From an uncultured Peptococcaceae bacterium (GTDB taxonomy: Bacteria > Bacillota > Dehalobacteriia > UBA4068 > UBA4997): DNA of 48,272 bases. Location: contig CANQSW010000001.1 of assembly GCA_947626615.1 (NCBI GenBank), forward strand, positions 1 to 48,272, in the 5' to 3' direction. Shown piece after piece: positions 13,680 through 30,264 of this stretch (position 1 is its first letter; every line of letters begins with the position of its first letter). The position numbers were made by a program, and so were the translations under genes. Under the pieces are notes generated by a model. It searched no databases. It saw only the letters and a list, made by a program, of their open reading frames with translations, and had not been told where the DNA came from.

Positions 13680-13988
13680 TCAAAGTTTGATGTCGATCTC
13701 AATGCCGGCGGGAAGATCCAGGTGCATAAAAGAATCGACCGTCTTCTGTGTGGGCTCAAGAATGTCAATCAGGCGCTTGTGCGTGCGCATTTCGAACTGT
13801 TCACGCGAATCCTTATTGACATGGGGAGAGCGCAAAATGGTGTAGATGTTTTTCTCAGTGGGCAACGGGATCGGCCCGGACACCTTTGCGCCAGTCCGTT
13901 TGGCTGTTTCCACGATCTGAGCTGCAGATACATCCAACAGCTTGTGGTCATAAGCCTTCAGACGGATACGGATTTTTTGTTGCGACAT
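13680..13988 (-). CDS. rpsJ: 30S ribosomal protein S10 (uS10)
   Basis: [44 protein letters not shown]... is canonical S10. The true ATG at 13986-13988 is preceded by GGAGGTAAAAC. The track ORF extends spuriously to 14066. Confidence 0.96.
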
Positions 13989-14126
13989 TGTTTTACCTCC
14001 TTTTCGCTCGTATTGCTTACGAACTGGCTCGGCGAGAAAACCCCCATGGAGCAGGCATACCTCCACGCGGCAACCTCTCGCGTCATCGCTTGTTACTTGC
14101 TTGGTTCACAAGCTGAACCAAAATAT

Positions 14127-14711: not shown

Positions 14712-14837
14712 TTTTTACCTCCGTTTTGCCGCAAAAAAAGCGCAGCCCGGTTTTGAACCCGGACTTACGCTCTAGCTGCACAGTTCGTTATTAATTTGCA
14801 TTACATATTATAGGTAGAAAAATTGTAAAAGTCAAGA

Positions 14838-14912
14838 AAAAAAGAGAGAAGTATCAGCCTGATCCCTCGGCGACACAGGCATTCTCTTCTCTCTTAAATA
14901 CTTAAAGGTTAC
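14838..14912. repeat. 75-bp direct repeat, copy 1 (left boundary of the island)
   Basis: aaaaaagagagaagtatcagcctgatccctcggcgacacaggcattctcttctctcttaaatacttaaaggttac is identical base for base to 30085-30159. The flanks outside the 75 nt are unrelated. Confidence 0.95.
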
Positions 14913-15061
14913 CTTATGTTGTTTATGGCAATTAATTCTAAGAGTATTATCATAGGTTCATCAAGTGCTGTTTTGCCGTGCTTTTGCTTTGTCCGTCAAC
15001 GGAATAATTGCACCTGCAGAATCTAGCATAACACCTAGCCGTTGATTTAAACGACTCTAAA

Positions 15062-15104
15062 AGCATAAGCCCTCAGAAAAGGGTTTATTCCTTTTTCGAG
15101 GGCT
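15062..15104 (-). terminator. hairpin terminator after the SLH/CAP gene
   Basis: 15-bp stem with one mismatch (15068-15082 pairing with 15090-15104) and a 7-nt loop. On the minus strand it is followed by TATGCTTTTAG. Confidence 0.5.
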
Positions 15105-15189
15105 ATACTGATATTAGCAGATATCGAACTATTTTGCAAAAAAACAACGTTCAGCATGCTTCGATAGCAGCTTTTCTGTATCTTTAGAT

Positions 15190-16308
15190 CTACTCTGCAG
15201 TCGCGTCCGGGTCAGTCGTGAATATCATGACCCACCAGACATATCCATCTGCATCCACGGAAACATCTATACCTGCTCTTGTATGAGTGGGATCCATGAC
15301 ATTGTCACGATGCGGCGGCGAAGCCATACAATCACTTACTAACAGATCCATATCAGCATAATGGATGCCGTAAGCAACGTTTTCGCCGCCCAGGACGTTA
15401 TCGTAGCCGACCTCCGGCAGGATCGTGCTCCAATCCCTGCCGTCTGGCCGCATATGCGGTGTTGGAGACCATTTCCATGCCACATCCTCGTCGATACGGA
15501 TTGCGGCGGCACGACATAATTCACCGTCCAGGATCGCTGGTTCCAGACCCTCCTTCGCTCGTTCAGCATTGAACTTCTCCAGCAATTGTTCGGGCAAAGT
15601 GCTTTGGTCAAAATAATACCAGCCTGCTTTCACCGGCGTTTCGCTGCGGCCATGCTCGTCAACAAAATTTGCTATCCTAACATATACGGAAGCAGCCTCG
15701 GCACGTGTCATATAGCCATAAGGATTGAACGTCATATCAGTGTTACCGGAGAAAATACCTAACTTGCAAGCCAACGTAACACGAGCTGGCCAGCCGCGAG
15801 TAAACTCCATATCATCATAAAGAGGTATAACGTTTTGATATTCCTCTGCAGGCGGTAAAGAACCTAACGAATCCAGAATGCTGTAAGAGATAGCTGCCGC
15901 CTTACAACGGAATATCGGGTCGGAGCTTTGCATGTTCCAAATATAGTTCAGACCATATTTTATGCAGACGTAATCGGTCGCGGTATACCATTCGTCACCC
16001 AAATTCAGGTCAGAATCGGCTTCAGCAGCCGCCACCTCGTTTGGGTAGAAGGCTCGCATCATTATCGCGATATATTCCCGTTTGGTGAGCTGGGCACCGG
16101 GGTCGAAAAGACGCTGCCCATTTACATCGGTGCCAACTCCCTCAATGGCACCATCGGCATAAGCGCGCTCTATATCACTATATGCCCAGTGTGTTTTAGG
16201 TACGTCCTTAAAAGTAGTCGGCGCTGCAAAAGCAGAAGTTGCCATAGTAATCACGAGCACCACTGTCAACAGCGTACAGATGAGGATCTTTGTGTTTTTA
16301 CTATGCAT
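15190..16308 (-). CDS. secreted SLH-domain protein with C-terminal CAP/SCP (PR-1-like) domain
   Basis: Signal peptide MHSKNTKILICTLLTVVLVITMATSAFA. SLH motif FKDVPKTHWAYSDIERAYADGAIEG. C-terminal ...ELCRAAAIRIDED...GENVAYG...HRDNVMDPTHTRAGIDV resembles CAP/YkwD-like domains. RBS AGGAGG. Confidence 0.7.
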   Translation of the reverse strand: MHSKNTKILICTLLTVVLVITMATSAFAAPTTFKDVPKTHWAYSDIERAYADGAIEGVGTDVNGQRLFDPGAQLTKREYIAIMMRAFYPNEVAAAEADSDLNLGDEWYTATDYVCIKYGLNYIWNMQSSDPIFRCKAAAISYSILDSLGSLPPAEEYQNVIPLYDDMEFTRGWPARVTLACKLGIFSGNTDMTFNPYGYMTRAEAASVYVRIANFVDEHGRSETPVKAGWYYFDQSTLPEQLLEKFNAERAKEGLEPAILDGELCRAAAIRIDEDVAWKWSPTPHMRPDGRDWSTILPEVGYDNVLGGENVAYGIHYADMDLLVSDCMASPPHRDNVMDPTHTRAGIDVSVDADGYVWWVMIFTTDPDATAE

Positions 16309-16390
16309 GATTTGAGTGCCTCCTTTTTAGGAATTTTTTCTTGAAATGTCTTTGATCAAAACAGTATCTGTCAATAGTAAGACGACCATC

Positions 16391-16419
16391 CACCGTTCTT
16401 GTGTATCACAAGAACGGTG
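16391..16419. other. perfect 13-bp stem / 3-nt loop hairpin between the two SLH genes
   Basis: CACCGTTCTTGTG-TAT-CACAAGAACGGTG. There is no U-tract on either strand, so it may be a processing or stability element rather than a classical terminator. Confidence 0.5.
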
Positions 16420-16508
16420 AGATTATCCATTCTTTAGATCAAGTTATCGTTTGTTGTATCCCATCCTACTATATGCGGTATTATAGCAGCAGCTGTTTTG
16501 CAGGAGGT

Positions 16509-19490
16509 TTATTGGTTGTTTTGTACGAAGCGCATCATGATCGTTGCGATCTCGGCACGGGTCGCTTTACCGCCGGGATTCAGCGTACCGTCAGAGTTAC
16601 CGGCGATCAATCCTTTGGTATTAGCCCAAAGGATAGCGTCTTCAGCCCAGCCGCTTACCTTATTGTAATCTTTGAAACTGCTGCAAACGTTTCTGGCCTG
16701 AGCCTGATCGAATTCGGTATCGTAGCCGGCCTGCTCAGCATAGCGATAAAGTATCGCCGCCAATTCCTGACGGGTAATATCGCTGTTAGGAGCAAACTTG
16801 TTCTCACCGACACCGTTCACGACATTGCCGTTTGCCGCCCAATCGACTGCCTGAGCATACCATTGGTTCCTGGATACATCGCTGAAACCGACCGCCGTGG
16901 TGCTGGGCTGTCCGGCCATGCGATACATCACGGTAACGATCATAGCACGGCTGGCGTTATCGTTGGGACCAAAGATACCATTGGAAACTGCGCCCATCAG
17001 GTTCTCTTCAGAAGCCCACTTTACTGCACCGGCATACCATGATGTGACTTTTACATCGCGGAAGTCGCCTACATAGGAAACGCTGTTGTTAACAGCAGTA
17101 TTGTTGGCGGCAGCCTTTTCGGCAGCAGCTTTTTCCGCAGCAGCCTTTTCGGCAGCAGCAGCTTTTCTTTCTGCAGCCAAATCGCGCTCCACCTTGAAAT
17201 TTCCGTTACCATCAACGGAACAGAACACGGGAAGATCACCACCACCGTAATACCATACCGCTTTGCCGTCGATCTCAATAGGCTGACAGTCAGAGAGGAA
17301 AGCATCAGCGGTATAGATCTTGCCGCATCGACCGTCTCCGTCAACAATGGTATATTTGAGGGTTCCGGTGGTATTACCTTTAGCGTGCTCATTCCACAGG
17401 AGAACGAACTTGTTATTAGCGATCTTCACCAGCTGCGGGTTGCCTGCTGCGGCGATCTGACCGTTGGTATAAGAAGATACCTGATATTTCTTCACACCGC
17501 TCTTGGTCAAGTTATCTTTGTCCACCGCATAGATCACGATGTTATAGGCATTACTGCTGTCAAAGTTGCCGCTCTGTTCATCGATTGCACCGGCGATAAG
17601 ATAATTGGAACTGCTTTCCTCAAAACCGCCCAGTTTGAAGCCGGTAGTACTTTCGCCGATACCGCCGACAAACTCCTGTACGTTCAAGATCTCACTGTTT
17701 TCGCCGAGGAACTTCTCCTTGCCGGCGGCACCGTTAAAGCGTACTATGACAGCAGCCCGCGGATAACCGTCGCCGTGGTCCAATGTTACGATATTAGCGT
17801 TACTGTCAGCCAATATAAACTGGTTGAAGGAATGGGATACGTAGCCGTATCTGAACTGAACCACCTCATAGAACTTGTCAGTCAACTTCATATCGCTTTG
17901 ACGCAACACCAATGTCATGTTGGCCTGGTGGCAAAGACCGTCTGAGCTTCTGTACATTTTATGGCAGGTATGGATCAAAAGTTGGTCGCCGGCCTCGGTC
18001 ATACGCAGACTGCCAAAATCAAAGGGAACAGAGGTATTGGCGCCCATAAGACTGAACTGATCCAGTCTCCGCCAGTTTTTGTCATATTTTACGACACGAA
18101 TAACTTCCACACTGTCAGAGAAGGAAGGATTGCTCTGTCCAAATACCATAAAGTTATACATCTGACCGCTATAGAAGCCACCAAAGATAGGTAATTCCTG
18201 GTCGATCTTCTGAGATGTCAACAGATTAAATTTAGGATCGTAGTTTTCTATTAATACCTTTTTGCCATTACCTTCGTTAATAGCTTCAACACGAGTAAGA
18301 TTATCGTCTGCTCTTTGATACAGATAAGACCACACCGTCTTGCTGGGGAAGCGATAATACTCATTCTCTATAGTGCTGTAAGAATTGTTGGCGACAGCAT
18401 TAGGATCAGCCACTATAGGATCTTCTTCCGGGGCATCCAGCCGCGGTATCGTCTTAGTATAGGTATCGCCGCAGGTTTTACAAGTATAGGTCAGTTCGCC
18501 GTCATGGGTCGTAGTGGCGATCCTAGTCACCTTTTCCTCATATTTATGGCCCAGAGCGTTATAGGTCGAAATGACCTCACGTTCACCGCACTTTGTGCAC
18601 ACGCGGCTATAACTGCCCTCTTCCGTACAAGTGGGCTGGGTCGTCTCATATTTCCAGCTGTGATAGGTGCATTTAGGCGTCTCGGTCTTTTCGGTATAGG
18701 TATCACCGCAGACCGTGCAGGTATAGGTAGTGATACCATCTGCTACAGTCTTTCTATACTTGTGGCCGGTAGCTTTATAAGTCGTAATGACTTCACGTTC
18801 ACCACACTTTAAGCACACACGGCTATAACTGCCTTCTTCAGTGCAAGTGGCCCGGGTCGTTTCATATTTCCAGCTATGGGTACATTTAGGTGTCACGCCC
18901 TGTTCGATTTCGGCTTCGGTTTTAAGGCAGTTAGCACAGACACGGGTAATGACACCATTTACCTCAGCCTCTACAAATCTGTGGCCAAAGGGTGTGTAAG
19001 TCTCGACGACTTCATACTCACCGCAGACCAAACACGTACGTGTATAATTGCCGCCTTCCGTGCAGGTGGGATAATTCTTCTTATATTTCCAGGAGTGTTC
19101 TATGACGGGAAGCGTCTCAATTTTCTCCACAGTGCCGCAGACGCTGCACTTGCGCTGAACATAGCCCTCCTTAGTACAAGTCGCTTCTACTCTTTCTTCC
19201 TCCCAGACATGCTCACAGACAGTAGGCTGCTCCTGTTCCAATGGAGGTGTAGTTTCTGGTGCAGTCTCTGTCGTGTTTCCGCCCTGCGTTCCGGTATCGC
19301 CGCCTCCCTGAGGATCTCCCTGTTCAGAGGGCGTTCCCTCCTCGGGGCCGTTTTGCGGAGCTGTATTAACAGACGGCTCTGTTGTTGTGCTGCCGTTAGT
19401 CCCATCGGATTCTTCAGCCAGCGCTATCGAAGAAAACAGTATAAACATCATACCGACCAGCAAAATAACAGCAAATGTTCTCTTTCTCAT
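16509..19490 (-). CDS. large S-layer-anchored surface protein: signal peptide, Cys-rich repeat modules, beta-rich central domain, AEKAA linker, three SLH domains
   Basis: 993 aa. MRKRTFAVILLVGMMFILFSSIALA signal peptide. Repeated HSWKYETT.ATCTEEGSYSRVC.KCGEREVI..Y...GHKY modules (residues about 92-347). C-terminal FRDVKVTSWYAGAVKWA, FSDVSRNQWYAQAVDWA and FKDYNKVSGWAEDAILWA SLH motifs. Confidence 0.8.
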   Translation of the reverse strand: MRKRTFAVILLVGMMFILFSSIALAEESDGTNGSTTTEPSVNTAPQNGPEEGTPSEQGDPQGGGDTGTQGGNTTETAPETTPPLEQEQPTVCEHVWEEERVEATCTKEGYVQRKCSVCGTVEKIETLPVIEHSWKYKKNYPTCTEGGNYTRTCLVCGEYEVVETYTPFGHRFVEAEVNGVITRVCANCLKTEAEIEQGVTPKCTHSWKYETTRATCTEEGSYSRVCLKCGEREVITTYKATGHKYRKTVADGITTYTCTVCGDTYTEKTETPKCTYHSWKYETTQPTCTEEGSYSRVCTKCGEREVISTYNALGHKYEEKVTRIATTTHDGELTYTCKTCGDTYTKTIPRLDAPEEDPIVADPNAVANNSYSTIENEYYRFPSKTVWSYLYQRADDNLTRVEAINEGNGKKVLIENYDPKFNLLTSQKIDQELPIFGGFYSGQMYNFMVFGQSNPSFSDSVEVIRVVKYDKNWRRLDQFSLMGANTSVPFDFGSLRMTEAGDQLLIHTCHKMYRSSDGLCHQANMTLVLRQSDMKLTDKFYEVVQFRYGYVSHSFNQFILADSNANIVTLDHGDGYPRAAVIVRFNGAAGKEKFLGENSEILNVQEFVGGIGESTTGFKLGGFEESSSNYLIAGAIDEQSGNFDSSNAYNIVIYAVDKDNLTKSGVKKYQVSSYTNGQIAAAGNPQLVKIANNKFVLLWNEHAKGNTTGTLKYTIVDGDGRCGKIYTADAFLSDCQPIEIDGKAVWYYGGGDLPVFCSVDGNGNFKVERDLAAERKAAAAEKAAAEKAAAEKAAANNTAVNNSVSYVGDFRDVKVTSWYAGAVKWASEENLMGAVSNGIFGPNDNASRAMIVTVMYRMAGQPSTTAVGFSDVSRNQWYAQAVDWAANGNVVNGVGENKFAPNSDITRQELAAILYRYAEQAGYDTEFDQAQARNVCSSFKDYNKVSGWAEDAILWANTKGLIAGNSDGTLNPGGKATRAEIATIMMRFVQNNQ
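17108..17178 (-). repeat. in-frame 15-nt tandem repeat encoding the (AEKAA)n linker
   Basis: gcagccttttcggca / gcagctttttccgca units. Translation is AAERKAAAAEKAAAEKAAAEKAAA, just upstream of the SLH triplet. Confidence 0.8.
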
Positions 19491-19625
19491 AATGTTTTTC
19501 CCTGCCTCCCCTGTAATAATATTTTTATTTTGTTTTGTTTTTCAAACAAAAACAAAACGCAAACGATAATTTAATACCAATATTTGTTATCGTCTAACTT
19601 ATCAGGTTGACAAACTTAAAAAGCT

Positions 19626-21767
19626 TCAATAGTCATAACTTCTGTATTTAGCCTCGTATACAGGGACTACATTATAAACATCATCATCAATTTTTCTTGT
19701 CTCGCCGTTTTCCCACATATAAAGCTCACCCTTGTGATAGTTAAGGTTATAATCATACAGATACAGAATACGTCCGCCGGGTATACTATAGAACTCGTAG
19801 ACATCATCTAAGGTCTCTACAATTTTACCATCCTGGTAGATCTTCAATGTACCATAAGCCTTATCGGCATTCCGATCTGTAAAATAAATCACTCTGTCGA
19901 AGTCACCACTCACTCCAACGTAATAGATATCTACACCGTGATCAATTTTTGTCTTGTTAATATAAAGTTCACCAATGTAATCTTTACAATCCTTGTAGTA
20001 TTGAAAATTGTCGCCACCTACAAAACAACAAAAACCAGTGTATACATTATTGTCATACAGCTCAGCTTTTCCAACAACGCCATTAGAAATAGAAATACGA
20101 TATAGATCACCGTAGTCTTTTTCGTCCGGAATATTGTCTAAATAGTAAACTACTGTGCCAGAAGAATTAATTTGAAATTTTTTGGCTTCCTTTACTTGTT
20201 CAATAAGCGTTGCGTTGTCTTTTACTGCAATATATTTATCTGACGAGGAGACTAAAGCAGCTTCAACCATTCCCTCAAGATCATAAATGTTTTTAACTTC
20301 GGAGAGTTTTACTTTTTCAAGATTGGATTGATTGTAAACTTCGTAAATAATAACAGGCTCATCGGATGCATAAGTACACTTATAAGTATAGCCATAAGAA
20401 TATTTATAGGCGCCACCCAATGCATCGGTGATTACGGTTGTCTCTGTGCCATTATAAAAGCAAAGAGAACTCCTAGGCCTCTCCATTTTTTTCCCTTCAA
20501 GGGAAGTTCTCAATTCGTCACGAGTTGCTTTTGCCCAATATGTCTCTAAGGCTGTAGAGTATTCCGTTTCCATACGATCATACTCGTTCTTCCAAGCCTC
20601 ATATGCATCTTCATATGCTTCATAAGCCGCATTATACTCAACATCAGAGCCATAGTCCCACCAGGAAGGAGCAATCGGAGCTTTAGGATAGTTAGGATAG
20701 CTCGGCTGTATCATAGAGTCATCAGCATCCTTCATGTCGTCTATTACATAATCCATCAGAGAAATCTCGTCGTCTTCACTGGTCAAGTAATAAATCTCTC
20801 CGGTTTCATAAATCTTAATCACATCATAAACGTTAGATGCGATTTTTACACTATCCTCACCTTCAACCTGCTTATATAAAGAATCTTCTTTAATGTAATA
20901 TGCAGTCTTTAAGTCGTTACTTAAGTATTCAAGAGAAGATACCTCACTTGCAATTTTTTCTTTGTCGTTATCTGCAGATTTACGATAAAAACTCCCCTCA
21001 GAATTGATATAAGCGATTTTTGTTCCGTCATCAGAAACGTTAAATTCTTTAACTTCACTGGCAATCTTATCCTTAGAGTCATCCGCAAGTTTATATTGAT
21101 ACAAACTTCCTTCTTCACCCTTGAGATAAGTAACAATACTTGTAGAAGTGTTTACGGTATAAGACTGAACATCAGAGTCGATCATAATTGCTTCGGATTC
21201 GGGTTTTCCAATCTCTCTGTAATAAAGATCGAACCTATACTCTTGACCGATCGTCCAGTAATTATCAATAATCTTATTGGGGAAAAAGATGTACTTACCA
21301 TCCTCACTCATATAAATACAGGCCCCTAAAGGTATATTTACTAAAGTTGTATTTCCCAAACCGCTATCATCGAGTCCAGAAGTCAACTGCAAAGCTTCGC
21401 TATCTTTCTTCAAATCAGAAAAGAAGATTTCGCCATCTTTTAAATAGAGCGCAAAGTCATTTTTAGCTTTACTTCCACTGGGCATCAGAGAGATCACGAG
21501 GATCAAAACTACTGCCAATGCTACGCCGATCCCACCAAATATAATTGTTTTTTTAGGAAACTTCTTCTTCTCGGCGAGAGCTGCAGGTCTTGCCTCGACA
21601 GGAACATCAGTTATTGATGCTCCACAACTTTGACAGAAAGCAAATTCGGTGCTTGTCTGCTTACCGCATTTAGGACAAAAAATAGTTTTATAAATCTTAG
21701 CACCGCAACCGTCACAGAACTTTACATCATCATTCAATTCCTTGTTGCATTTAGGGCACGTTATCAT
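19626..21767 (-). CDS. double zinc-ribbon / single-TM protein with large repeat-containing (propeller-like) ectodomain
   Basis: 713 aa. N-terminus CPKCNKELNDDVKFCDGCG then CPKCGKQTSTEFAFCQSCG. TM IIFGGIGVALAVVLILVISLM. Three 37-aa repeats each contain KIAS(E/N)V, and the C-terminal half is Tyr-rich. RBS GGAGGA. Confidence 0.8.
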   Translation of the reverse strand: MITCPKCNKELNDDVKFCDGCGAKIYKTIFCPKCGKQTSTEFAFCQSCGASITDVPVEARPAALAEKKKFPKKTIIFGGIGVALAVVLILVISLMPSGSKAKNDFALYLKDGEIFFSDLKKDSEALQLTSGLDDSGLGNTTLVNIPLGACIYMSEDGKYIFFPNKIIDNYWTIGQEYRFDLYYREIGKPESEAIMIDSDVQSYTVNTSTSIVTYLKGEEGSLYQYKLADDSKDKIASEVKEFNVSDDGTKIAYINSEGSFYRKSADNDKEKIASEVSSLEYLSNDLKTAYYIKEDSLYKQVEGEDSVKIASNVYDVIKIYETGEIYYLTSEDDEISLMDYVIDDMKDADDSMIQPSYPNYPKAPIAPSWWDYGSDVEYNAAYEAYEDAYEAWKNEYDRMETEYSTALETYWAKATRDELRTSLEGKKMERPRSSLCFYNGTETTVITDALGGAYKYSYGYTYKCTYASDEPVIIYEVYNQSNLEKVKLSEVKNIYDLEGMVEAALVSSSDKYIAVKDNATLIEQVKEAKKFQINSSGTVVYYLDNIPDEKDYGDLYRISISNGVVGKAELYDNNVYTGFCCFVGGDNFQYYKDCKDYIGELYINKTKIDHGVDIYYVGVSGDFDRVIYFTDRNADKAYGTLKIYQDGKIVETLDDVYEFYSIPGGRILYLYDYNLNYHKGELYMWENGETRKIDDDVYNVVPVYEAKYRSYDY

Positions 21768-21825
21768 TGCGTCATCCTCCTACATACAAATTATAAAACT
21801 GCTTTGATTTGTGTAAAGATATCTC

Positions 21826-22446
21826 TTATTCTATAAGCAGAAGTTTCCATTTTCCATTTTCTTTTGTCATCGTAATTTGAACCAGCATATCAACAGATTC
21901 CTCTCCTTTTTTTGCAGTAATCTCTATATCTGCACCCTTAACTTGCGATATAGTACTAATATCAAAGTCCGGATAACTTGATTCTATTTCATATAATAAA
22001 CTATCTAACTTTCTTCCGGAGATCGTATAAATCTCCTGTATATCATAGCTCAGCTTGTAGTTGTGCCCTACAGATGATTCAAAGAAATCCAAATCATCCC
22101 CTACATTATTCTCGAAATAATACTCGACCCTGTCTACACTGTCATAATAAAATATATCGCTTGACAGATCAACCAGCGTATCAATATCATACTTCTCATA
22201 TGCAGTCATCACTTGCCGCAGCAGTCCATTGTACCCCATGTATTTTGGAACGATATTAAGTGCAATCACAACAACTACGATTAAAGCAATCGCCCCAACG
22301 AAAAGCTTAATTTTTGTTTTGGTTTTTTTCTGCTTTTTCTGATCTTGAATATCTGTTGATACTCTGTCAACCGGCGTTCCGCATTGATCGCATACATTGG
22401 CATCATCTGTCAATTCAGCACCACAATTACCACAAAATTTCGACAT
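21826..22446 (-). CDS. zinc-ribbon / single-TM protein with small ectodomain (NTF2/DUF4878-like guess)
   Basis: 206 aa. MSKFCGNCGAELTDDANVCDQCGTPV, Lys-rich linker, TM LFVGAIALIVVVVIALNIV. The ectodomain ends ...ITMTKENGKWKLLLIE. RBS GGGGAGGT lies inside the 3-prime end of the upstream gene. Confidence 0.75.
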   Translation of the reverse strand: MSKFCGNCGAELTDDANVCDQCGTPVDRVSTDIQDQKKQKKTKTKIKLFVGAIALIVVVVIALNIVPKYMGYNGLLRQVMTAYEKYDIDTLVDLSSDIFYYDSVDRVEYYFENNVGDDLDFFESSVGHNYKLSYDIQEIYTISGRKLDSLLYEIESSYPDFDISTISQVKGADIEITAKKGEESVDMLVQITMTKENGKWKLLLIE

Positions 22447-22453
22447 AAGTAAT

Positions 22454-25258
22454 TTACCTCCCCGCGTTTCTTCTTTTTACTTTATGCACAGTTATTACAA
22501 CAAACAGCAAGCATAGCAAACTGCAGCCGCCTATAACAAAATAAGTAAGCTTGCTTTGCTTAATCTCCTCACCATAACTATTTTCCCCTGCACGTAGTCG
22601 CACATCATACTTCCCATCGCCATTCTCATCTATGTTTAGAGTACTTTGATCAGAAACAGCTGCTTTTGTATCAATGACAGTCTTTTTTGTAATCTTGACA
22701 TTTTCAAACCGTCTAAGATCACTATAATTGCCATTATCATCCATAAAACCGATAGTATAGTCCATAATTCCATGTCCTGTACCGATAAGTTTTAAATCGT
22801 AATCAGCGCCTTCTTTTAATCTTAGAACTTTTACCCTGTCATCAATACCGTTTGCTAAATCTTCTTCGTCTTGTTCAAAAGAAAGTGTGCCGAAATCTGT
22901 TCTAAGATTCAGATCTTTTTCAGAAGAGCTAAGTGTTTGCCCTTCATAAGTAACAGATACATCTACAGGACAAGCGATCCGTACATAGATATATTTCTGC
23001 CCGTTGATCTGATCTGCCATATCCCCAAAGAAGAACATTAAATCATCTGCATTTGCCACTTCATAGTGGCAACCATCACTGGCAATCCGCTCCATTAGTT
23101 GTTGAGCAAATGATTTATAGCCTCCCAGATTTTCAAAAAACCCTAATGTGTAAATAAGAACTCCATCTTTTTTTATCTCATCCGCATAATCAACGAGATC
23201 GTCACCCACTTTACCGTTGTTTGGCTCTCCATCGCTCATAAGCACAATAATTTTCTTTTTGGCAGTACTGGCACTAAGCATAGAATGCGCTTCCTTTAAA
23301 CCCGCTTCAATATTTGTCCCTCCACCAGAATGAATATCAGATACGATACTTTCAAGAGATTCTTTGTTCAAAGAAAAGTCTGAATTGCGATTGGCGTAAT
23401 TGTCATATGTGACTACGCCTATACTTGCATTCTCCTCAAGAATTGTATCAATAAAGTTTACGGAAGCCTTGCGAGTCTCCTCAATTGGCCTCCCTGACAT
23501 ACTGCCGGAAACATCAAGGACAAGTACAATATCTCTTTCATCATTATTAAAAACAAAATTTTCTGCACCTTTTTCTCCAAATATTAGAGGGGTAGCAACT
23601 TCTTCTTTGTTTCCATATTTACTATCGTTTTCACCATATTTCTTTTTGGCCATTGCAAGCGCTTCTCCTAATGTGTAAAGCCTCCCAGTTTTCTCATTAT
23701 AATGTGTCATATTTTCTAAGGTTGCATTTTGAACTAGTAAATTATAATCGGTACATATTGTTTCCGAATTAGCAACTACTGCTTTGGCTCCTTTTCTCAA
23801 AAAAGAATCTGCTAATACGTTATCTTTTCCACTCTGACAAGCAGCAAGATAAAGAAATGTACCGTTTAAATTGTTACAATATTTATCGATGTATTTTGAT
23901 GTAAATGCCACATTGCCATTAAGACATTCTACAATTCGATTTTCCATATTATCAAGACGGTAATTCGAATCCGACTGAAATGCATCATAATCAAATTCTT
24001 CACCTGTTAAAAGATACGAATGTAACGAATCGGAATATCCGCCATGCCCGTGCCAAATTATTACCTGATTTTCAGATAATGCTTTTATCTTATTTAATGT
24101 AACTTCTTGATTGTCATAATTATTTTCTGCATTAAACTTATACAATGACAATTTTTCGCTTATCTTTTCCGCTGATAAGTCAGGCAAGATCATGTACTCA
24201 TTCATTTCTGATGAATATGTGTTTAAACATGGTTGAAACGTGAATACAGAAATATTGACATTTTCACCTATAGCATCTATGCCATAACGCTTTGGCAAAT
24301 ATATATATGTCAGTCCATTCTTAAATTTAAGTAGGATTGAATTATCTGACACTTCATAATACAATACATCTCCGTTTTTATATAGATTTTCTGCATACCC
24401 TTCGACTTCTTCCATTACAGCAGAAAGATCACTTTCTTTGACATAACCATCGTCACCACAAAATGTTTCTTCTATTGCTATAATATTTGCTTGAATTTTT
24501 TGAATTTCCGATACAGATTCTTCAGTTGGCCTCTCAAAAAAATATAAGTACACCATTTCTGAAATATATTCTTCAGTTTTACAATAATAGCTTTTAGAAC
24601 CCAACTCTGATACAACGGATATCGTGTTAGCATAGATTCCGTCTCCAGCAAACGAATCTCCATTTTTGCCATTATCAAACATTTTGCACACTATTTTATC
24701 ATCTGAATATTCATACAAATCTACATAATCTGGTTTTTTACCTTGTACAGAAACTGAAAAAACAACATTTACCTGCTCATTTTCCCAGAAACAATTTTCA
24801 TTTGATGTAAAATTCTCCAGCAAACTATCATCATCAGTTTCTATATCACGTTCATTATTATTTGGCAACAGTTCAACACGATCGATTATTTTTTCTATTT
24901 CAGGTATATCAACTATGTCAAAATACACAAGTGCACCAAGTGCAGCTATTACAAGCACAGCAATCAACAGAATAATCAAAATTAACTTAAAGAGAAATCG
25001 AAGAATCTTTTTGCTAATAGACAATCCGGCTCGTTCTTCTTTCTTTTCAGTTTTAATTTCTTCCTTACGTTGTTTTCTAGCTTCTCTCTTGCTAAACCGT
25101 TCTTCAGTAGATGCTGACCGATGATTGTTTGTTTCACCTTCATTAGATGCTACAGGCCCTGGCTTCTGTACCTTCTTTAATTCATCTGCGTTGCAGTTTG
25201 GACAAAAGCCCGTATTTTCATCCAACTTTGCGCCACACTTCCCACAAAATTTTACCAT
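22454..25258 (-). CDS. zinc-ribbon / TM / clan-CD-like His-Cys peptidase-like domain / vWA (MIDAS) domain / beta-sandwich / C-terminal TM anchor protein
   Basis: 934 aa from the ATG at 25256-25258 (RBS GGAGGAGG; the track ORF extends spuriously to 25384).
- MVKFCGKCGAKLDENTGFCPNCN zinc ribbon
- TM LFKLILIILLIAVLVIAALGALVYF
- VIIWHGHGGY (DNA about 24041-24060) and FLYLAACQSGKD (about 23830-23850) resemble a caspase/gingipain His and Cys pair
- DIVLVLDVSGSMSG...GGGTNIEAGL...IIVLMSDGEPN is a vWA MIDAS pattern (about 23000-23533)
- C-terminal LTYFVIGGCSLLCLLFVVITV followed by HKVKRRNAGR. Confidence 0.8.
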   Translation of the reverse strand: MVKFCGKCGAKLDENTGFCPNCNADELKKVQKPGPVASNEGETNNHRSASTEERFSKREARKQRKEEIKTEKKEERAGLSISKKILRFLFKLILIILLIAVLVIAALGALVYFDIVDIPEIEKIIDRVELLPNNNERDIETDDDSLLENFTSNENCFWENEQVNVVFSVSVQGKKPDYVDLYEYSDDKIVCKMFDNGKNGDSFAGDGIYANTISVVSELGSKSYYCKTEEYISEMVYLYFFERPTEESVSEIQKIQANIIAIEETFCGDDGYVKESDLSAVMEEVEGYAENLYKNGDVLYYEVSDNSILLKFKNGLTYIYLPKRYGIDAIGENVNISVFTFQPCLNTYSSEMNEYMILPDLSAEKISEKLSLYKFNAENNYDNQEVTLNKIKALSENQVIIWHGHGGYSDSLHSYLLTGEEFDYDAFQSDSNYRLDNMENRIVECLNGNVAFTSKYIDKYCNNLNGTFLYLAACQSGKDNVLADSFLRKGAKAVVANSETICTDYNLLVQNATLENMTHYNEKTGRLYTLGEALAMAKKKYGENDSKYGNKEEVATPLIFGEKGAENFVFNNDERDIVLVLDVSGSMSGRPIEETRKASVNFIDTILEENASIGVVTYDNYANRNSDFSLNKESLESIVSDIHSGGGTNIEAGLKEAHSMLSASTAKKKIIVLMSDGEPNNGKVGDDLVDYADEIKKDGVLIYTLGFFENLGGYKSFAQQLMERIASDGCHYEVANADDLMFFFGDMADQINGQKYIYVRIACPVDVSVTYEGQTLSSSEKDLNLRTDFGTLSFEQDEEDLANGIDDRVKVLRLKEGADYDLKLIGTGHGIMDYTIGFMDDNGNYSDLRRFENVKITKKTVIDTKAAVSDQSTLNIDENGDGKYDVRLRAGENSYGEEIKQSKLTYFVIGGCSLLCLLFVVITVHKVKRRNAGR

Positions 25259-25346
25259 GGTACTCCTCCTCCCATGCATAACATTTTGAATCACAAAAAA
25301 GTAAAGACAGTGGTGTATTAATGCTATCCACTGCCTCTGCTCGTCC

Positions 25347-25631
25347 TTATCCCATATATTTATCGATAAGTTTGTCACCAACAAGGAAGGAGATCATCCC
25401 CAAGTTGATTGCTTCGGCACCAAGAAGGATAAAGATAATATTTTCAATGATGTCAATAACGCTGACTATCAAAGTGACAACACAGAACCATACAATCGTG
25501 CTAAACATTTTATCAACTACAACTATAAGATTATTGATAAAACCGATTGTATCAAAAATCAAGTCGTTACTATTAGCAAAGAAAAGAATAGTAACGGTAC
25601 TACTGACTTCCCAGCAGCCTTGTTCAACCAT
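25347..25631 (-). CDS. possible small hydrophobic protein (hypothetical)
   Basis: 94-aa ORF co-directional with the cluster, with hydrophobic stretches (STIVWFCVVTLIVSVIDII, IFILLGAEAINLGMISFLV). No convincing RBS. A plus-strand ORF of similar size overlaps it. Confidence 0.3.
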   Translation of the reverse strand: MVEQGCWEVSSTVTILFFANSNDLIFDTIGFINNLIVVVDKMFSTIVWFCVVTLIVSVIDIIENIIFILLGAEAINLGMISFLVGDKLIDKYMG

Positions 25632-25764
25632 TCATTTGTCGCAAACATAAAATGGATCCTGCCAAAATGACTATGTTCGCTAAGAAAACACATTAACCAA
25701 ATCACTACATCCAACAGACCAACATAAATTCTCAGACTCTCCCTTTTCCTCGGTTCATTATAAC

Positions 25765-26346
25765 TTATAACTTATTTCCACACTCAGTGCAGAAAATAGA
25801 GCTATCATCTACTTTTGCACCACATTTTGAACATACACGATCAAGCGTTTCAGGCTCATCCTCAGCTACAGTGACAACAGATGAAACAGGTTCCAACGGT
25901 TTTCCACAAGCCGTACAGAATCGCATTCCTTTTTTCACCATGGCACCACAATTACCGCACTTTACATAGTCAGCAGGATCGACCGTTTCGATCTTAGGTA
26001 TAGGTGCACCACATGAGCTGCAAAAAGCAGCATCCTTAGATAACTCTGCTCCGCACTTTTCGCAACATTGCACCCCTTTAATATCTTGAAGCTGCTTTTT
26101 ACAGTCATTTATCTTCGCTTCAGCATCAGCGATTGCCTTAATCATTTCTACGAATTCTTCTTTGCAGTCCTCTTTATGAATAGAAAAATACAATTTGCCA
26201 AGTTGACAGTATAGACTTGAAAGATTTTTCTCTTCTTCGTTAATTAATGAGTTAAGCCTTGAGGTATCTGCAATTTCTTTTGTTTTAGCAATAGTCTTTT
26301 GTCCCGTTTCAGTAACAGCTTTACTAATTTTATCAAAGAAAGCCAT
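25765..26346 (-). CDS. soluble coiled-coil protein with three C-terminal zinc ribbons
   Basis: 193 aa. N-terminal MAFFDKISKAVTETGQKTIAKTKEIADTSRLNSLINEEEKNL... is helical or coiled-coil by composition. Then CEKCGAELSKDAAFCSSCG, KCGNCGAMVKKGMRFCTACG and CSKCGAKVDDSSIFCTECG. No TM. RBS GGGAGGG. Confidence 0.8.
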   Translation of the reverse strand: MAFFDKISKAVTETGQKTIAKTKEIADTSRLNSLINEEEKNLSSLYCQLGKLYFSIHKEDCKEEFVEMIKAIADAEAKINDCKKQLQDIKGVQCCEKCGAELSKDAAFCSSCGAPIPKIETVDPADYVKCGNCGAMVKKGMRFCTACGKPLEPVSSVVTVAEDEPETLDRVCSKCGAKVDDSSIFCTECGNKL

Positions 26347-26370
26347 CGTATTACCCTCCCGTTTATGTAT

Positions 26371-26652
26371 TTACGAATTTAGCTCTTGGATCCCTTTATA
26401 ACAATCGTCGCAAACAAAAACTATTATTCCAAGACCAGAAGTATAGTGCTTTGTAGCTTTTCCGGAACAAAAGAAACATTCCGAAGAACAGTCTGCACAA
26501 TAGTACTCGTTTTCGCCTGTATATTCGTTTTTATACGCCTTTGTCGGAGTTTGACCACAGGACACACACGGTTCAGATGAACCACACGCTGAAAGAGTAA
26601 AGATCAACGCAATAAAAACCAACATAGCAATAGTTCGTTTAAGATAAATCAT
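26371..26652 (-). CDS. small Cys-rich lipoprotein
   Basis: 93 aa. Signal peptide with lipobox LSAC (…IFTLSACGSS). The mature part has 10 further Cys, including CVSC, CADC, CFFC and CDDC pairs. RBS GGGAGGA. Confidence 0.75.
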   Translation of the reverse strand: MIYLKRTIAMLVFIALIFTLSACGSSEPCVSCGQTPTKAYKNEYTGENEYYCADCSSECFFCSGKATKHYTSGLGIIVFVCDDCYKGIQELNS

Positions 26653-27705
26653 TCTTTTTTCCTCCCTTGATCACTACATTTTCTGACTGTGCATATAACG
26701 ATTTGTGTTTTAAAGGACTTGACATTTTCTTAATGAATATTCCGGTATGACAAGAGACGCTTTTTCAGACACCTCTCTTGTTTATATGTTTTGCCTAAAC
26801 CGATAATCTTTCGCGAAAATTTGAATCACAGCTCTTGGTGCATGCGCCGCTCGAAAACTACACCTGTCGCGTCGAATTTCTACATCATAGCCGCTGAAAT
26901 CCTACAGTTTCATGGCAGACCATATAGTTACAAGATTTGAAATATTTTATGCACCATATACTGCAGTCACCATGCACCATTTCGTCCAGCCAGAACGCAC
27001 CAAGGAATGCGGTCTAGCTTGCAGCACCAAGGCAGTGGACTTCAATGGCATTGTCCTGCTTGAGTGACGCGGCTGTTCAATCAAGCGACGAAGATGTTCA
27101 ATTACAGCGTCGCAATTGTTCATTTTAAACAACACAGAGGTTTGATATCGCTGTCTTACTCAGCAGAAGTGGCTCTCAAGTTCCGGAATGCTGGCTCTCA
27201 TCTACCGGACAGACAGCTCAATGACCTCCAAAATATTCATCCCGATATTGGAACGTAGAAAGTGCCATATTGTACTTTTTCACTGTCGCTAAGACAGTGA
27301 TCATCTTTGTATTTCCGAACTGCCAGATGCGGCAAAAGTACTATGACAAAGAATATGGCAACCATCATAGACACATTCTATAGGTTTTCGCCGCCACGAT
27401 GTTTACGCTTGATAATGTCTAATGTTGACGCGGATATAATCATAAATCGCTATCTCAGTCCCTTTTTCCAACACATACTATTAGTTTTGTTTTGTTCATT
27501 AATCAGATAAGACCATCCAAAACATCTCGCTTTGTAATTATGTTGTCCTTATGCAATAGAAAATCATGAGAAGCAATTTGATTATTTGTGCGATCATATT
27601 AAGCAGTTAGTTACCTACATTACTTCTTTCTTCAATGCGCCGTGGCTCTTCGATTACGGCGGCAAGTTCGTTCTACAGATCCATTACTGAATATAAAATT
27701 GTTCT

Positions 27706-27744
27706 AAACCAGAAAACCACTGGCTGGAAAGCCCAACCAATGGT
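27706..27744 (-). terminator. possible terminator after lgt
   Basis: ACCA(C)TGG 27716-23 pairs with CCAATGGT 27737-44, 13-nt loop. On the minus strand it is followed by TTTTCTGGTTT. Lies 16 nt after the lgt stop. Confidence 0.4.
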
Positions 27745-27759
27745 CTTGCAATATACACC

Positions 27760-28572
27760 TTATTTTCGGCTGGCGCTACGATTTTGATTGTCTAAAGTCG
27801 CACCACACTTATACGCTATTAATTTGCGAGACATACAGATAAAAGCAACTGCTAACAAAATAAAAATGCTAAGCCATTGCGAAACGGAAAACAACCCTAT
27901 TATCCCCCGCTCTTTATCATCATAGCGTAAAAATTCCAACAAAAACCGCAATATGGCATAGGTACCAAGATATATGTAAGGCATTTCTCGCAATCTTTTG
28001 CCTCTTAATACCATATACAAAAATATAGCTGCCAGGGAAAAATTAATAAATGCCTCTAAAAGCTGCACCGGAAATAGCGGCACACCGATCGGAGCATACG
28101 CCGGCGCATGATAAACAATACTGCCGATCCCGTCATAAGGTATACCATAGCAGCATCCAGCAATATGACAACCAATACGACCAAAACCATGTGCAAGAGG
28201 CACACAAGGAACGATTATCTCGGCATATTTTCTAGCGTTTATTTTATGTATTTTACCAGCGGCAAAAAAGGCTGTCAGACCACAAAGCAAGCCACCGTAA
28301 AACACATAACCACTTGCTAACAGTTGCTTCAGATAGCTCAAAGATGTCAAATGATCCCATTCTATCTGGTCTCTCAAAAGAAAAATACTTAAAGCTTTTG
28401 CACCCAAAAGCCCTCCGCATATTGCATATGCCCCTAGAATCAGCAGCTCATCGTCTGACAAAGCATATTTCTTTACCAGACAATAAGCTACTGCCGTTGA
28501 GACTATCAAACCTAATGCAACCAAACAGCCATAAAATGGAATAAACCTGCCAAACAGATAAACACCTGCCAT
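27760..28572 (-). CDS. lgt: prolipoprotein diacylglyceryl transferase (island-borne copy)
   Basis: 270 aa polytopic protein. Lgt signature motifs YGGLLCG, HGFGRIGCHIAGCCYG, FPVQLLEA and RFLLEFLRYDD. Its ATG directly abuts the TAA of the upstream gene. Confidence 0.88.
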   Translation of the reverse strand: MAGVYLFGRFIPFYGCLVALGLIVSTAVAYCLVKKYALSDDELLILGAYAICGGLLGAKALSIFLLRDQIEWDHLTSLSYLKQLLASGYVFYGGLLCGLTAFFAAGKIHKINARKYAEIIVPCVPLAHGFGRIGCHIAGCCYGIPYDGIGSIVYHAPAYAPIGVPLFPVQLLEAFINFSLAAIFLYMVLRGKRLREMPYIYLGTYAILRFLLEFLRYDDKERGIIGLFSVSQWLSIFILLAVAFICMSRKLIAYKCGATLDNQNRSASRK

Positions 28573-28830
28573 TTAGGGAGCAACTGCACCAAATGCAGCC
28601 AAGCCTCCCACACAGGAAGCACAGGCAACAACAAACAAAACGGAAAGTATCAAGCCAATGATAGAACAGACCAAGCCGGCTTTAGCCAGCGATGCACGTT
28701 CCGGCACTTTTTTCCCCAAAACGCCAAGAATGATACCAACAACACCACATATGGCACCAATAGGCAGACCAAAACCAAATACCGCTGCTACGATCGAAAC
28801 GATACCTAAAACCAACGATGCAATAGCCAT
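28573..28830 (-). CDS. DUF4190-like small Gly/Ile-rich membrane protein
   Basis: 85 aa, MAIASLVLGIVSIVAAVFGFGLPIGAICGVVGIILGVLG...LVCSIIGLILSVLFVV. RBS GGGAGA. Translationally coupled to lgt. Confidence 0.65.
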   Translation of the reverse strand: MAIASLVLGIVSIVAAVFGFGLPIGAICGVVGIILGVLGKKVPERASLAKAGLVCSIIGLILSVLFVVACASCVGGLAAFGAVAP

Positions 28831-28854
28831 TTTTATTCTCCCTTCAAATTAAAG

Positions 28855-29043
28855 TTACATTCTAGCAACACAATCATTCTTATCCAAAGTCAGAGCATAA
28901 TGTTCATTACCGGGCATAATCGATTGTATAAACCCTAAAGAACGCAGATACGTCAAAACCCTCTGTTGTTCTTTGAAATTTAATTGTAAAAACAATTCAA
29001 TAAATTCTTCTTCTTTGTTGTTCTGATTCGATTTTTGCCGCAT
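28855..29043 (-). CDS. hypothetical 62-aa protein, first gene of the DUF4190-lgt operon
   Basis: Good RBS (GGAGGTG, 5-nt spacer). Divergent from the XRE gene. No family recognised. Confidence 0.5.
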   Translation of the reverse strand: MRQKSNQNNKEEEFIELFLQLNFKEQQRVLTYLRSLGFIQSIMPGNEHYALTLDKNDCVARM

Positions 29044-29080
29044 AAAAACACCTCCACTTTAGGCAATGTGTTGCAAACAC

Positions 29081-29109
29081 AATATAACACAATTTGTTTG
29101 TGCCGTCAA
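29081..29109 (-). promoter_or_regulatory. promoter of the 62-aa/DUF4190/lgt operon
   Basis: On the minus strand: TTGACG (29104-29109), 17-nt spacer, TGtTATATT (-10 hexamer at 29081-29086). Confidence 0.55.
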
Positions 29110-29133
29110 CACTCTTCGACGATTTCTTTTGTG

Positions 29134-29162
29134 TTGACGAACCTTTTTTAATGTTGTATGAT
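29134..29162 (+). promoter_or_regulatory. promoter of the XRE regulator gene
   Basis: TTGACG (29134-29139), 17-nt spacer, TATGAT (29157-29162). Its -35 box is one arm of the 9-bp inverted repeat CGTCAACAC (29104-29112) / GTGTTGACG (29131-29139). Confidence 0.55.
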
Positions 29163-29209
29163 ATACTTGAAAAATATAAGTTGTAACTGGTTGGGGAGGA
29201 ACTGACAAG

Positions 29210-29566
29210 TTGAAAAATCGTGTTCGCATAATAAGAAACCAGCTAAATTTATCACAACGAGAATTTGGAGAGAAACTGGGCGTCAGCCGCGATGTTATCA
29301 GTAACATAGAATATGGACGAGTACAGCCTAAGGAGTTGTTACTGAAGCATATGTGCCAGCTTTTTAACGTTAATCCCGTTTGGTTGCATACAGGTAATGG
29401 CAAAATATTCTTAGACGAGCCCATCTACAACGAAAATCTTAAAGAGGCTATAAACATCTTCTCCCAATTGCGACCAGAGTTTCAAGCATACGCCTTGGAG
29501 CAGATACGCAATTTAGTCGAGTTGCAGGAAAAATACCCGCCGGATACCATGATAGCAAACAAGTAA
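29210..29566 (+). CDS. XRE-family helix-turn-helix transcriptional regulator
   Basis: 118 aa, TTG start after GGGGAGGAA. IRNQLNLSQREFGEKLGVSRDVISNIEYGRVQP is a classic HTH_3 motif. Confidence 0.85.
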   Translation: MKNRVRIIRNQLNLSQREFGEKLGVSRDVISNIEYGRVQPKELLLKHMCQLFNVNPVWLHTGNGKIFLDEPIYNENLKEAINIFSQLRPEFQAYALEQIRNLVELQEKYPPDTMIANK

Positions 29567-30024
29567 AATAGAAGAGCCAAATCATCACTCCCATATAATC
29601 AAACCAACTCCTTCCGTAGCTCAATTGCTTTTTTACCGCAACTTGCAAATGAGGTGCAAATCTTTTAAATTTACAACATTTAAAAAGTCTTTTAAAATGC
29701 AAAAAAAACATTGATTTGGTTTATATTATAGTTTAAAACTATATTTTAGGATCAGTAGATACAGAATGATTTTATTATCCATTCAAAACTTTCAGGATCA
29801 AAATTTTGCATCGCCTATCAAATGACAAGATTTGGTTTTTTACAGAATACCATTCTCTATCATGGCGATTTTTCAAACGGACATGAAAGAACGACAAATC
29901 ATTTTTAAAGCATCTGCATTTACTCCTACTATATATAAAAGGTAAAGAAAATGGATTTTCGGAAAAGTTTTTCCAAAAATTTTTATTTTTTAGTAATTCT
30001 TTTCGCCGACCTTATTCTTACCGC

Positions 30025-30076
30025 AAAAAATCAGCATATCTTTATGATCGGATTCATAAGGATACGCTGATTTTTT
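30025..30076. terminator. bidirectional intrinsic terminator at the right inner edge of the island
   Basis: A6-TCAGCATATCTTTATGA-loop-TCATAAGGATACGCTGA-T6. The core stem is 17 bp (1 mismatch, 1 wobble), flanked by A6 and T6 runs. Confidence 0.6.
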
Positions 30077-30084
30077 AAACCAAT

Positions 30085-30159
30085 AAAAAAGAGAGAAGTA
30101 TCAGCCTGATCCCTCGGCGACACAGGCATTCTCTTCTCTCTTAAATACTTAAAGGTTAC
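30085..30159. repeat. 75-bp direct repeat, copy 2 (right boundary; terminator-like element downstream of tuf)
   Basis: Identical to 14838-14912. On the minus (tuf) strand it folds as AAGAGAGAAG...CTTCTCTCTT (10 bp), enclosing an inner GCCTG/CAGGC stem, and is followed by T6. Confidence 0.95.
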
Positions 30160-30264
30160 TGTCGGCTGTCCAATAGGATACGACCCTCGGCATGAGCCAC
30201 ACCCTCACAACAGACCTTTATAAGCCAAACTTTTTTAACTGTTTTGATACTTTTGCTCCTACGA

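Follow-up and report, generated by a model that had tools for sequence, protein, structure and literature searches.

We analysed a 48,272-nt window of DNA from an uncultured Peptococcaceae bacterium, which is one complete contig (CANQSW010000001.1) of NCBI assembly GCA_947626615.1 and is apparently metagenome-derived. In this window, 15,172 nt lie between tuf, the last gene of the str operon, and the promoter of the S10 operon, and this block, here called the island, is bordered by two copies of a 75-nt sequence. Our comparisons support the interpretation that the 15,172 nt are a horizontally acquired genomic island, which was probably inserted at the tuf terminator with the terminator duplicated at both borders. 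On our best reading, it is a fairly ordinary decayed, non-autonomous island that is flanked by attachment (att) sites and lies beside a translation operon, and what is new is the unusual attachment sequence and the poorly known lineage.

The original prediction, made from the sequence alone, had proposed that a perfect direct repeat of 75 nt encloses the block and that unrelated sequence begins directly outside each copy. The repeat search (family D3) and direct reading of both copies gave identity at 75 of 75 positions, and alignment of the flanks agreed with the abrupt change outside them (Table 1). When the 52-nt core of the 75-mer was searched with up to 3 mismatches, only these two sites were found in the window, while none of 100 shuffles gave a match, and low-stringency BLAST detected no degenerate third copy in the window. 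Further copies, which the prediction had proposed to look for, were not encountered in the collections searched: the 30-nt core had no match in the JGI metagenomes and IMG/VR, a degenerate terminator pattern had none in the JGI metagenomes, and the 205-nt tuf 3' region had none in the phage and plasmid collections. The copy count is two in the 48 kb of the window and one, diverged, in the 11 kb of the nearest relative (L002, see below).

Since the island genes are on the minus strand, the 75-mer is to be read as its reverse complement. On the transcribed strand it contains a 10-bp outer stem (AAGAGAGAAG/CTTCTCTCTT) and an inner stem followed by U7, and the fold has an energy of -28.4 kcal/mol (z = -3.4 versus shuffles; the left copy was folded, and the right copy is identical). 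Judged by these sequence features, the 75-mer is the predicted intrinsic terminator of tuf and of the str operon. It begins 105 nt past the stop codon of tuf. The end of the left copy is separated by 2 nt from the -35 box of the S10-operon promoter, which is followed by a leader hairpin, the DUF2798 gene, and rpsJ. We infer that the tuf-proximal copy would still terminate the str operon and that the distal copy would end transcription of the island before the S10 promoter. With a terminator at both borders, both essential operons would therefore keep their native signals.

The repeat extends beyond the terminator hairpin itself. The 25 nt of the 75-mer upstream of the hairpin are part of the conserved tuf 3' untranslated region (UTR), and the base of the hairpin in the tuf 3' spacer pairs with the first 6 nt of the 75-mer. 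A 31-nt block (CTATTGGACAGCCGACAGTAACCTTTAAGTA) that is identical in the window and L002 straddles the upstream edge of the 75-mer, and the consensus fold of the 3' UTR from these two sequences contains 4 compensatory pairs. Two hairpins in this UTR (30085-30264, minus strand; L002 18-185) are common to the window and L002, and the motif GCCGAGG is present in the loops of both; they could form a 3' UTR-derived RNA element.

The DUF2798 protein was searched in species-representative genomes, and only four loci were returned. The nearest relative found, L002, is the contig end of Candidatus Avidehalobacter gallistercoris (Peptococcaceae incertae sedis, chicken-gut metagenomes), which is 86.6% identical to the window at the nucleotide level over 10.6 kb of the S10 operon. 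Its first 184 nt comprise the last tuf codons (...AINE*), a spacer that corresponds by homology to 30264-30160, and a single 75-mer homologue, in which 65 of 79 aligned columns are identical (about 82%), the outer stem is kept, and the inner stem is compensatorily changed. Past this terminator L002 contains an unrelated insert of 297 nt and then the same promoter, leader, DUF2798 gene, and rpsJ; the island is absent. The outer flank of the right copy in the window matches the tuf side of L002 and that of the left copy matches the promoter side (L002 position 482 onward), as expected for attR and attL, respectively. Since L002 carries a single terminator without the island, the 15,172 nt and one terminator copy represent an insertion with terminator duplication. 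The empty site for which the original prediction had looked to related genomes is thereby at hand, in the order tuf, terminator, promoter, DUF2798, rpsJ, and comes from a different species and not from a sister strain. The host DNA flanking the island recurs in an independent sample of the same species (L001). This species is present in the ENA samples ERZ27249389 and ERZ27249684.

The insert of L002 (185-481) is bounded on both sides by TTTTTTG and holds a 60-aa ORF without a family match. We considered whether it is a leftover of the same island and rejected this, as there is no similarity. Because L002 carries an unrelated insert there, the point where the terminator U-tract meets the -35 box appears to be insertion-prone.

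The gene order after tuf in other genomes qualifies the premise of the original prediction that tuf is followed directly by rpsJ. This holds in the distant L006, where rpsJ comes directly after tuf, but it is not uniform in the lineage: L003 has the order mtnN, DUF2798, rpsJ, and another group of relatives has rpmG-secE-nusG after tuf. The DUF2798 homologues located upstream of rpsJ in L002 and L003 are 58-62% identical to that of the window. The top protein-level tuf matches (P0001 and P0002) were only 72-76% identical in DNA and were therefore uninformative, and the exact tuf and SLH+CAP protein sequences of the window had no database record. In the relatives L009-L018, whose tuf protein is 94% identical, we observed three junctions, fusA-tuf-rpmG, pyrD-tuf-hydrolase, and pyrD-tuf-rpmG. 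One tuf protein in three junction combinations points to two identical tuf copies followed by recombination or assembly chimeras. One of the tuf copies has a large serine recombinase, in fragments, 4-6 kb downstream.

The original prediction had described everything between the repeats as AT-rich compared with the flanking genes. We found that the GC content is 52-62% in the flanks, 46-50% at 14.9-19.5 kb, and 32-41% at 19.5-30 kb. The GC content at third codon positions (GC3) is 0.78-0.86 in ordinary host genes (secY, adk, map, amidase, symporter, and lipoprotein genes), 0.61-0.81 in most ribosomal-protein genes, and 0.48-0.56 in the island-adjacent host genes tuf, DUF2798, and rplC. In the island it is 0.50-0.53 in the two SLH genes, 0.27-0.37 in every called minus-strand gene at 19.6-29.0 kb, and 0.48 in the plus-strand XRE gene. 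The description therefore applies clearly to 19.5-30 kb, while 14.9-19.5 kb is below ordinary host genes only and lies near the level of tuf, DUF2798, and rplC. These values support a foreign composition of at least 19.5-30 kb, and the island is a mosaic. As a separate observation, the island-bordering genes tuf, DUF2798, rpsJ, and rplC (12923-14711 and 30265-31467) have a GC3 of 0.48-0.61, versus 0.61-0.86 in the remaining operon and host genes.

The genes of the island had been predicted to encode accessory envelope proteins throughout, and this is mostly the case; the exceptions are the XRE regulator and the small ORF divergent from it. The central part is a cassette around a zinc-ribbon/VWA surface protein, whose homologues are 59-72% identical in amino acids (71-72% for P0122 and P0123). 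The cassette order is kept in all three homologue contigs that were retrieved (L008, L020, and L021). On two of these contigs, L008 and L020, a MobA/MobL relaxase and a small resolvase immediately precede the cassette. L008 additionally breaks off within a large serine recombinase, of which it holds the N-terminus, and its DNA identity to the window reaches 84% over 1.4 kb. This VWA/zinc-ribbon surface cassette moves between gut bacteria on elements that bear a relaxase and a resolvase. The 137-aa membrane-protein gene, a frameshifted remnant in the window, is intact in L008, L020, and L021, and the 713-aa protein fills the variable slot of the cassette, in which L008 and L021 have an LRR_5 protein. 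We also noticed that the VWA ORF, annotated as 976 aa, starts too early, since the homologues and the database gene call start from the Met that yields a 934-aa protein. Three tandem repeats of 216-219 nt (family D1; 18540-19097; 64-100% identical) in the gene for the 993-aa SLH protein encode Cys-rich modules (C..C....C..CG).

The right part of the island consists of the XRE gene and, divergent from it, an operon of the 62-aa ORF, the DUF4190-like gene, and lgt (29043-27760). A terminator-like hairpin just inside the right end of the island closes the XRE gene. Relatives of the XRE protein that are 56-63% identical occur on 23 IMG/VR viral contigs, and in two of them (L023 and L024, about 9720-10330) the synteny spans the XRE gene, the divergent promoter region, and the start of the 62-aa ORF, which itself has no family match in Pfam or PHROGs. 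The arrangement resembles a phage-type repressor/antirepressor switch. Back-to-back promoter-like sites are present at 29081-29162, between the two genes. The best non-self homologues of Lgt are at most 55% identical, and the few named ones are from Lachnospiraceae (Roseburia and Wujia). A nearly identical copy of the right module is present in an independent ENA sample (L022), with two mismatches and one deletion over 2.2 kb. A frameshifting deletion of 28 nt in lgt of L022 (1441-1500; window 27901-27928) cuts the protein to 215 aa, indicating that lgt is dispensable. The proposal that the block was acquired horizontally into the tuf terminator region is borne out by the single-copy site of L002, the foreign composition of 19.5-30 kb, and the mobility-linked cassette elsewhere.

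No integrase, transposase, relaxase, or phage structural gene had been noticed in the original prediction, and our searches gave the same result. Among the island ORFs, Pfam and PHROGs detected no integrase, transposase, relaxase, replication, or virion protein. When six-frame pieces of 26653-27759, 29567-30084, and 14913-15189 were searched with Pfam at E <= 1, only noise was obtained, and no match below E = 0.2 resulted when the L008 and L020 relaxases and resolvases were used in tblastn/tblastx (E > 0.5 for tblastn with the relaxases). The prediction had suggested that a recombinase decayed in the ORF-poor stretch. The relaxase and resolvase of L008 and L020 do occupy the corresponding position; since the stretch holds no trace of either, neither in Pfam nor in tblastn/tblastx, the decayed recombinase was a positional guess without sequence support.

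Other element types were considered and rejected. For a known ncRNA or group II intron, there was no Rfam match at the gathering score in the whole window or at E <= 1 in 26.3-30.3 kb, and no tRNA or tmRNA was found in the window. A prophage or plasmid was rejected because 19.5-30 kb had no megablast match in phages or plasmids, only distant plasmid matches were obtained for VWA and Lgt by tblastn, and the VWA, Lgt, and 713-aa proteins had no relatives on viral contigs. PADLOC returned generic HTH matches only, which does not make an anti-phage defence island. A transposon or insertion sequence was discarded as there is no transposase, no terminal inverted repeats exist between the island ends, and the duplication is 75 nt. 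We took an integron cassette to be an unsuitable lead because there is no IntI gene, and presumably an Xer-dependent element (IMEX) can be set aside as well, since the 75-mer, by eye, is unlike the Firmicute dif sequence. No excised or alternative form of the island was retrieved.

Based on these observations, we favour the view, to which we give an even chance, that the island is a decayed, non-autonomous integrative element, similar to a cis-mobilizable element (CIME), with the tuf terminator as its att site. The incoming DNA would have been a circular integrative element with the same 75-mer in its attachment site, and a site-specific, tyrosine-type recombinase would have recombined the circle with the chromosomal terminator. 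This recombinase would have been encoded elsewhere or lost since then, along with the transfer genes, and the remainder would be a non-autonomous, CIME-like island with both att sites and no mobility genes. If the two 75-mers recombined, by a site-specific or a RecA-dependent route, the island would be removed exactly and a single-terminator site regained. Of the att-duplication reading in the original prediction, the insertion with repeat borders stands, while the site-specific origin is plausible but unproven, with neither a recombinase nor a remnant of one.

Several points weigh against this view. No recombinase, relaxase, oriT-like or excisionase signal, or pseudogene remnant was detected anywhere in the island, no third, internal att copy documents accretion, and no related element with an integrase was found at a tuf terminator. 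The junctions are not confirmed in an independent assembly, as the same-species contigs found (L001 and L022) end short of both. Furthermore, the repeat is not a conserved gene end; it is intergenic sequence that evolves fast and is specific to the lineage, with about 82% identity to its counterpart in the closest relative. Since it is lineage-specific, either the incoming DNA already carried the 75-mer of this species or the duplication arose on the spot, and a foreign element would not be expected to match at 75 of 75 positions unless it had previously resided in this species. Prior residence fits within-species cycling of an att-flanked island, and it fits equally well RecA-dependent Campbell integration or allelic import.

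A route without a dedicated recombinase is therefore a possibility that we take seriously, while considering it unlikely. A circle, either a copy excised in another cell of this species or a plasmid that is mobilizable and had acquired the terminator, would have integrated through a single Campbell-type crossover in the 75-mer, or the whole arrangement of terminator, island, and terminator would have arrived by transformation or conjugation and been imported through a double crossover in the tuf and S10 flanks; the repeat would then be a homology patch and not a recombinase site. A full-length perfect repeat of the lineage's own sequence is what within-species exchange predicts, a recombinase or remnant was not found, and the flanking genes, which rank with the most conserved on the chromosome, are good anchors for allelic replacement. 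A length of 75 bp is close to the minimum for efficient RecA-dependent recombination, which makes the repeat usable but only a marginal substrate. This route also leaves the origin of the first terminator-island-terminator arrangement unexplained, and the mobility-linked cargo on other contigs and the phage-like XRE module suggest a dedicated mobile-element ancestry. We consider it improbable that the repeat arose by illegitimate or replicative duplication at insertion, in which staggered breaks about 75 nt apart would have been filled in, or the template switched, before foreign DNA was ligated with no att site involved. One-off events of this kind occur rarely relative to integration at att sites, the target duplications of known transposition systems are, to our knowledge, far shorter than 75 nt, and the island is a mosaic with mobile-element relatives. 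What speaks for it is that the upstream edge of the repeat cuts the base of the conserved hairpin and the 31-nt block shared with L002, and the borders of the repeat are not those of a functional unit; terminal inverted repeats and a recombinase are absent; and the same U-tract/-35 junction, which received the unrelated 297-nt insert in L002, appears insertion-prone.

An assembly artefact or a mixed population is very improbable in our judgement. The chromosome would then read tuf, terminator, promoter, and the island would be a separate circle with one terminator that the assembler threaded in. The window is one whole contig of an uncultured organism's assembly, a shared node of 75 nt gives an identical assembly graph for both configurations, the assemblies of relatives join inconsistently around repeated tuf genes, and no independent contig found spans either junction. 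Ordinary-length reads span 75 nt and modern assemblers normally resolve such a node, while the island without a replication gene cannot be a plasmid; even so, an element with an exact copy of the host terminator would be real and would be the excised form of the same island. It is highly unlikely, and the least credible of the explanations considered, that the 75-mer belongs to a dispersed terminator or REP-like family whose copies end neighbouring units of an old native block. The 75-mer is a terminator, and the SLH genes are compositionally near the neighbouring host genes, as this explanation would have it. The identity at all 75 positions, the sharp edges that include 25 nt of the conserved tuf 3' UTR, the low copy count, the lack of matches in the JGI metagenomes and IMG/VR, and the relative without the block at the same site argue against it, and the SLH+CAP gene already has its own terminator-like hairpin (about 15070-15088). 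A slim chance is left for an undescribed class of recombinase-less elements that would use a complete intrinsic-terminator hairpin as attachment site, through a hairpin-recognising recombinase acting in trans or a mechanism copying the 75 nt. If so, the element would automatically insulate itself between two essential operons.

The CIME-like reading can be compared with known systems. CIMEs, described in streptococci, are elements without integration and transfer genes that keep attL and attR (PMC5704250). Housekeeping genes, those for ribosomal proteins among them, are often hit by integrative elements at the 3' end, and the direct repeat preserves the gene end; such target genes are rplL, rpmG, rpmE, rpsI, and guaA (Table 1 of PMC5704250). 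The island likewise lies between two direct att-like repeats and lacks integration and transfer genes, so that the retained attL and attR and the lost mobility genes of CIMEs have their counterparts here. It sits right after a highly expressed translation gene whose 3' signals are kept by the repeat, and its mosaic cargo is consistent with accretion and decay. In contrast to CIMEs, its repeat is a lineage-specific intergenic terminator and not the conserved 3' end of a coding or tRNA gene, the repeat is long (75 nt) and perfect, no decayed mobility gene is visible, and no partner integrative and conjugative element (ICE) or integrative and mobilizable element (IME) with a matching integrase is known. 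Compared with ICEs, IMEs, and prophages themselves, the island has border repeats and an unoccupied site, and integrase, relaxase/oriT, conjugation, and virion genes are absent. As for an ICE or IME ancestry, the cassette is linked to a relaxase and a resolvase on two contigs and one cassette gene of the island is frameshifted, while the window holds no mobility remnant. The elements that target gene 3' ends (rplL, rpmG, and others) resemble the island in its position at the end of a translation-apparatus operon with the target kept intact by the repeat, but they encode a tyrosine integrase and their repeat overlaps the coding 3' end; the island does neither, and its repeat lies past the tuf stop codon.

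The Firmicute IMEs or mobilizable elements with a MobA/MobL relaxase and a small serine resolvase (L008 and L020) share the cassette of zinc-ribbon protein, lipoprotein, 137-aa protein, VWA protein, zinc-ribbon protein, and variable large surface protein. Compared with these elements, whose contigs are incomplete, the window has the 1.1-kb ORF-poor stretch instead of the relaxase and resolvase, the first two cassette genes are swapped, and the VWA protein lacks about 157 residues of its closest homologues including the Lectin_C domain (compared with L008 4421-7708). Tn7 inserts at attTn7 in the glmS terminator with a 5-bp duplication, terminal repeats, and TnsABCD. The island, like Tn7, is in the terminator region downstream of an essential conserved gene and leaves the gene unharmed, but it has no 5-bp duplication, terminal repeats, or TnsABCD.

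On this view 15 kb of foreign genes for surface proteins can be accommodated at the tuf/S10 junction, at the heart of the translation-gene cluster, in a lineage of gut Firmicutes that is represented by metagenomes only. The duplication of the terminator would make the insertion harmless, as the str operon still ends and the S10 promoter is insulated. A long perfect repeat without a recombinase between its copies cannot, by itself, separate site-specific from homology-driven integration. If a partner integrase is found, the tuf terminator would become a new example of a non-coding attachment site.

Table 1. Positions in the window of the island, its borders, and neighbouring features.
Feature	Position	Strand	Evidence or remark
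rpsJ (ribosomal protein S10), where the S10 operon proper begins	13680..13991	-	Pfam Ribosomal_S10, E = 1.5e-39
DUF2798 membrane-protein gene, first after the promoter	14244..14711	-	Pfam DUF2798
Sigma-70-like promoter TTGACT-17-TATAAT of the DUF2798-S10 operon	14807..14835	-	11/12 consensus match; kept in L002
75-nt repeat, S10-proximal copy; att-like left border	14838..14912	-	second copy of the predicted tuf terminator
372-aa SLH + CAP-domain protein	15190..16308	-	Pfam SLH, CAP
993-aa SLH-domain cell-wall-anchored protein	16509..19490	-	Pfam SLH x3, E = 7e-31
713-aa double-zinc-ribbon protein with large C-terminal region	19626..21767	-	Pfam
206-aa zinc-ribbon membrane protein, cassette	21826..22446	-	Pfam; 55-57% identical to 210-aa proteins of L008/L020
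934-aa zinc-ribbon/VWA surface protein	22454..25258	-	Pfam VWA, E = 9e-23
Frameshifted remnant of 137-aa membrane-protein gene	25353..25747	-	two tblastn pieces in different frames versus L020 protein
193-aa triple zinc-ribbon protein, VWA cassette	25765..26346	-	Pfam Zn_Ribbon_1, DZR; 51-52% identical to L008/L020
93-aa lipoprotein, VWA cassette	26371..26652	-	49-52% identical to 91-92-aa genes of L008, L020
ORF-poor 1.1-kb stretch	26653..27759		no coding or RNA-family signal; 27198-27759 99.8% conserved in L022
Extra lgt (prolipoprotein diacylglyceryl transferase)	27760..28572	-	Pfam LGT, E = 2.4e-36
Small membrane protein, DUF4190-like	28573..28830	-	Pfam DUF4190, E = 2.5e-5, below gathering score
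62-aa ORF, divergent partner of the XRE gene	28855..29043	-	called as gene in L022
XRE-family HTH regulator	29210..29566	+	Pfam HTH_3, E = 9e-13; PHROG transcriptional regulators
23-nt inverted repeat flanked by A/T runs, bidirectional terminator-like hairpin	30025..30076		91% complementary
75-nt repeat, tuf-proximal copy; att-like right border	30085..30159	-	perfect repeat, hairpin and U-run
tuf 3' untranslated spacer with conserved hairpin	30160..30264	-	87% identical to L002
tuf (EF-Tu), last gene of rpsL-rpsG-fusA-tuf	30265..31467	-	ORF; homologues 94-96% identical with GTP_EFTU domains

The host genes around the island follow one another on the minus strand. The order starts with rpoB (44270-40710), rpoC (40682-36948), two lipoprotein-like genes, and an L7Ae-family gene, continues with rpsL, rpsG, fusA (33610-31520), and tuf up to the island, and past the island proceeds from the DUF2798 gene and rpsJ through the S10/spc operons to secY, adk, and map. 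We observed a terminator-like hairpin with a U-run (14735-14765, minus strand) in the interval that separates the promoter of the S10 operon from the start codon of DUF2798; it is kept in the relative (L002 about 573-610), matches no Rfam family, and may be an attenuator or leader.

The two lipoprotein-like genes between rpoC and the L7Ae/rpsL genes (35117-35998 and 36018-36779, minus strand) are paralogous and have no Pfam family, and an 84-nt stretch encoding the N-terminal signal region is 85% identical between them (repeat D2). This pair is an odd insertion in the rpoBC-str cluster, yet it has a host-like composition (GC3 about 0.8). Upstream of rpoB (44570-48272), an Amidase_3 gene on the plus strand and a sodium:solute symporter gene are present in place of rplJ-rplL. 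The ribosomal superoperon is rearranged in the lineage of the window.

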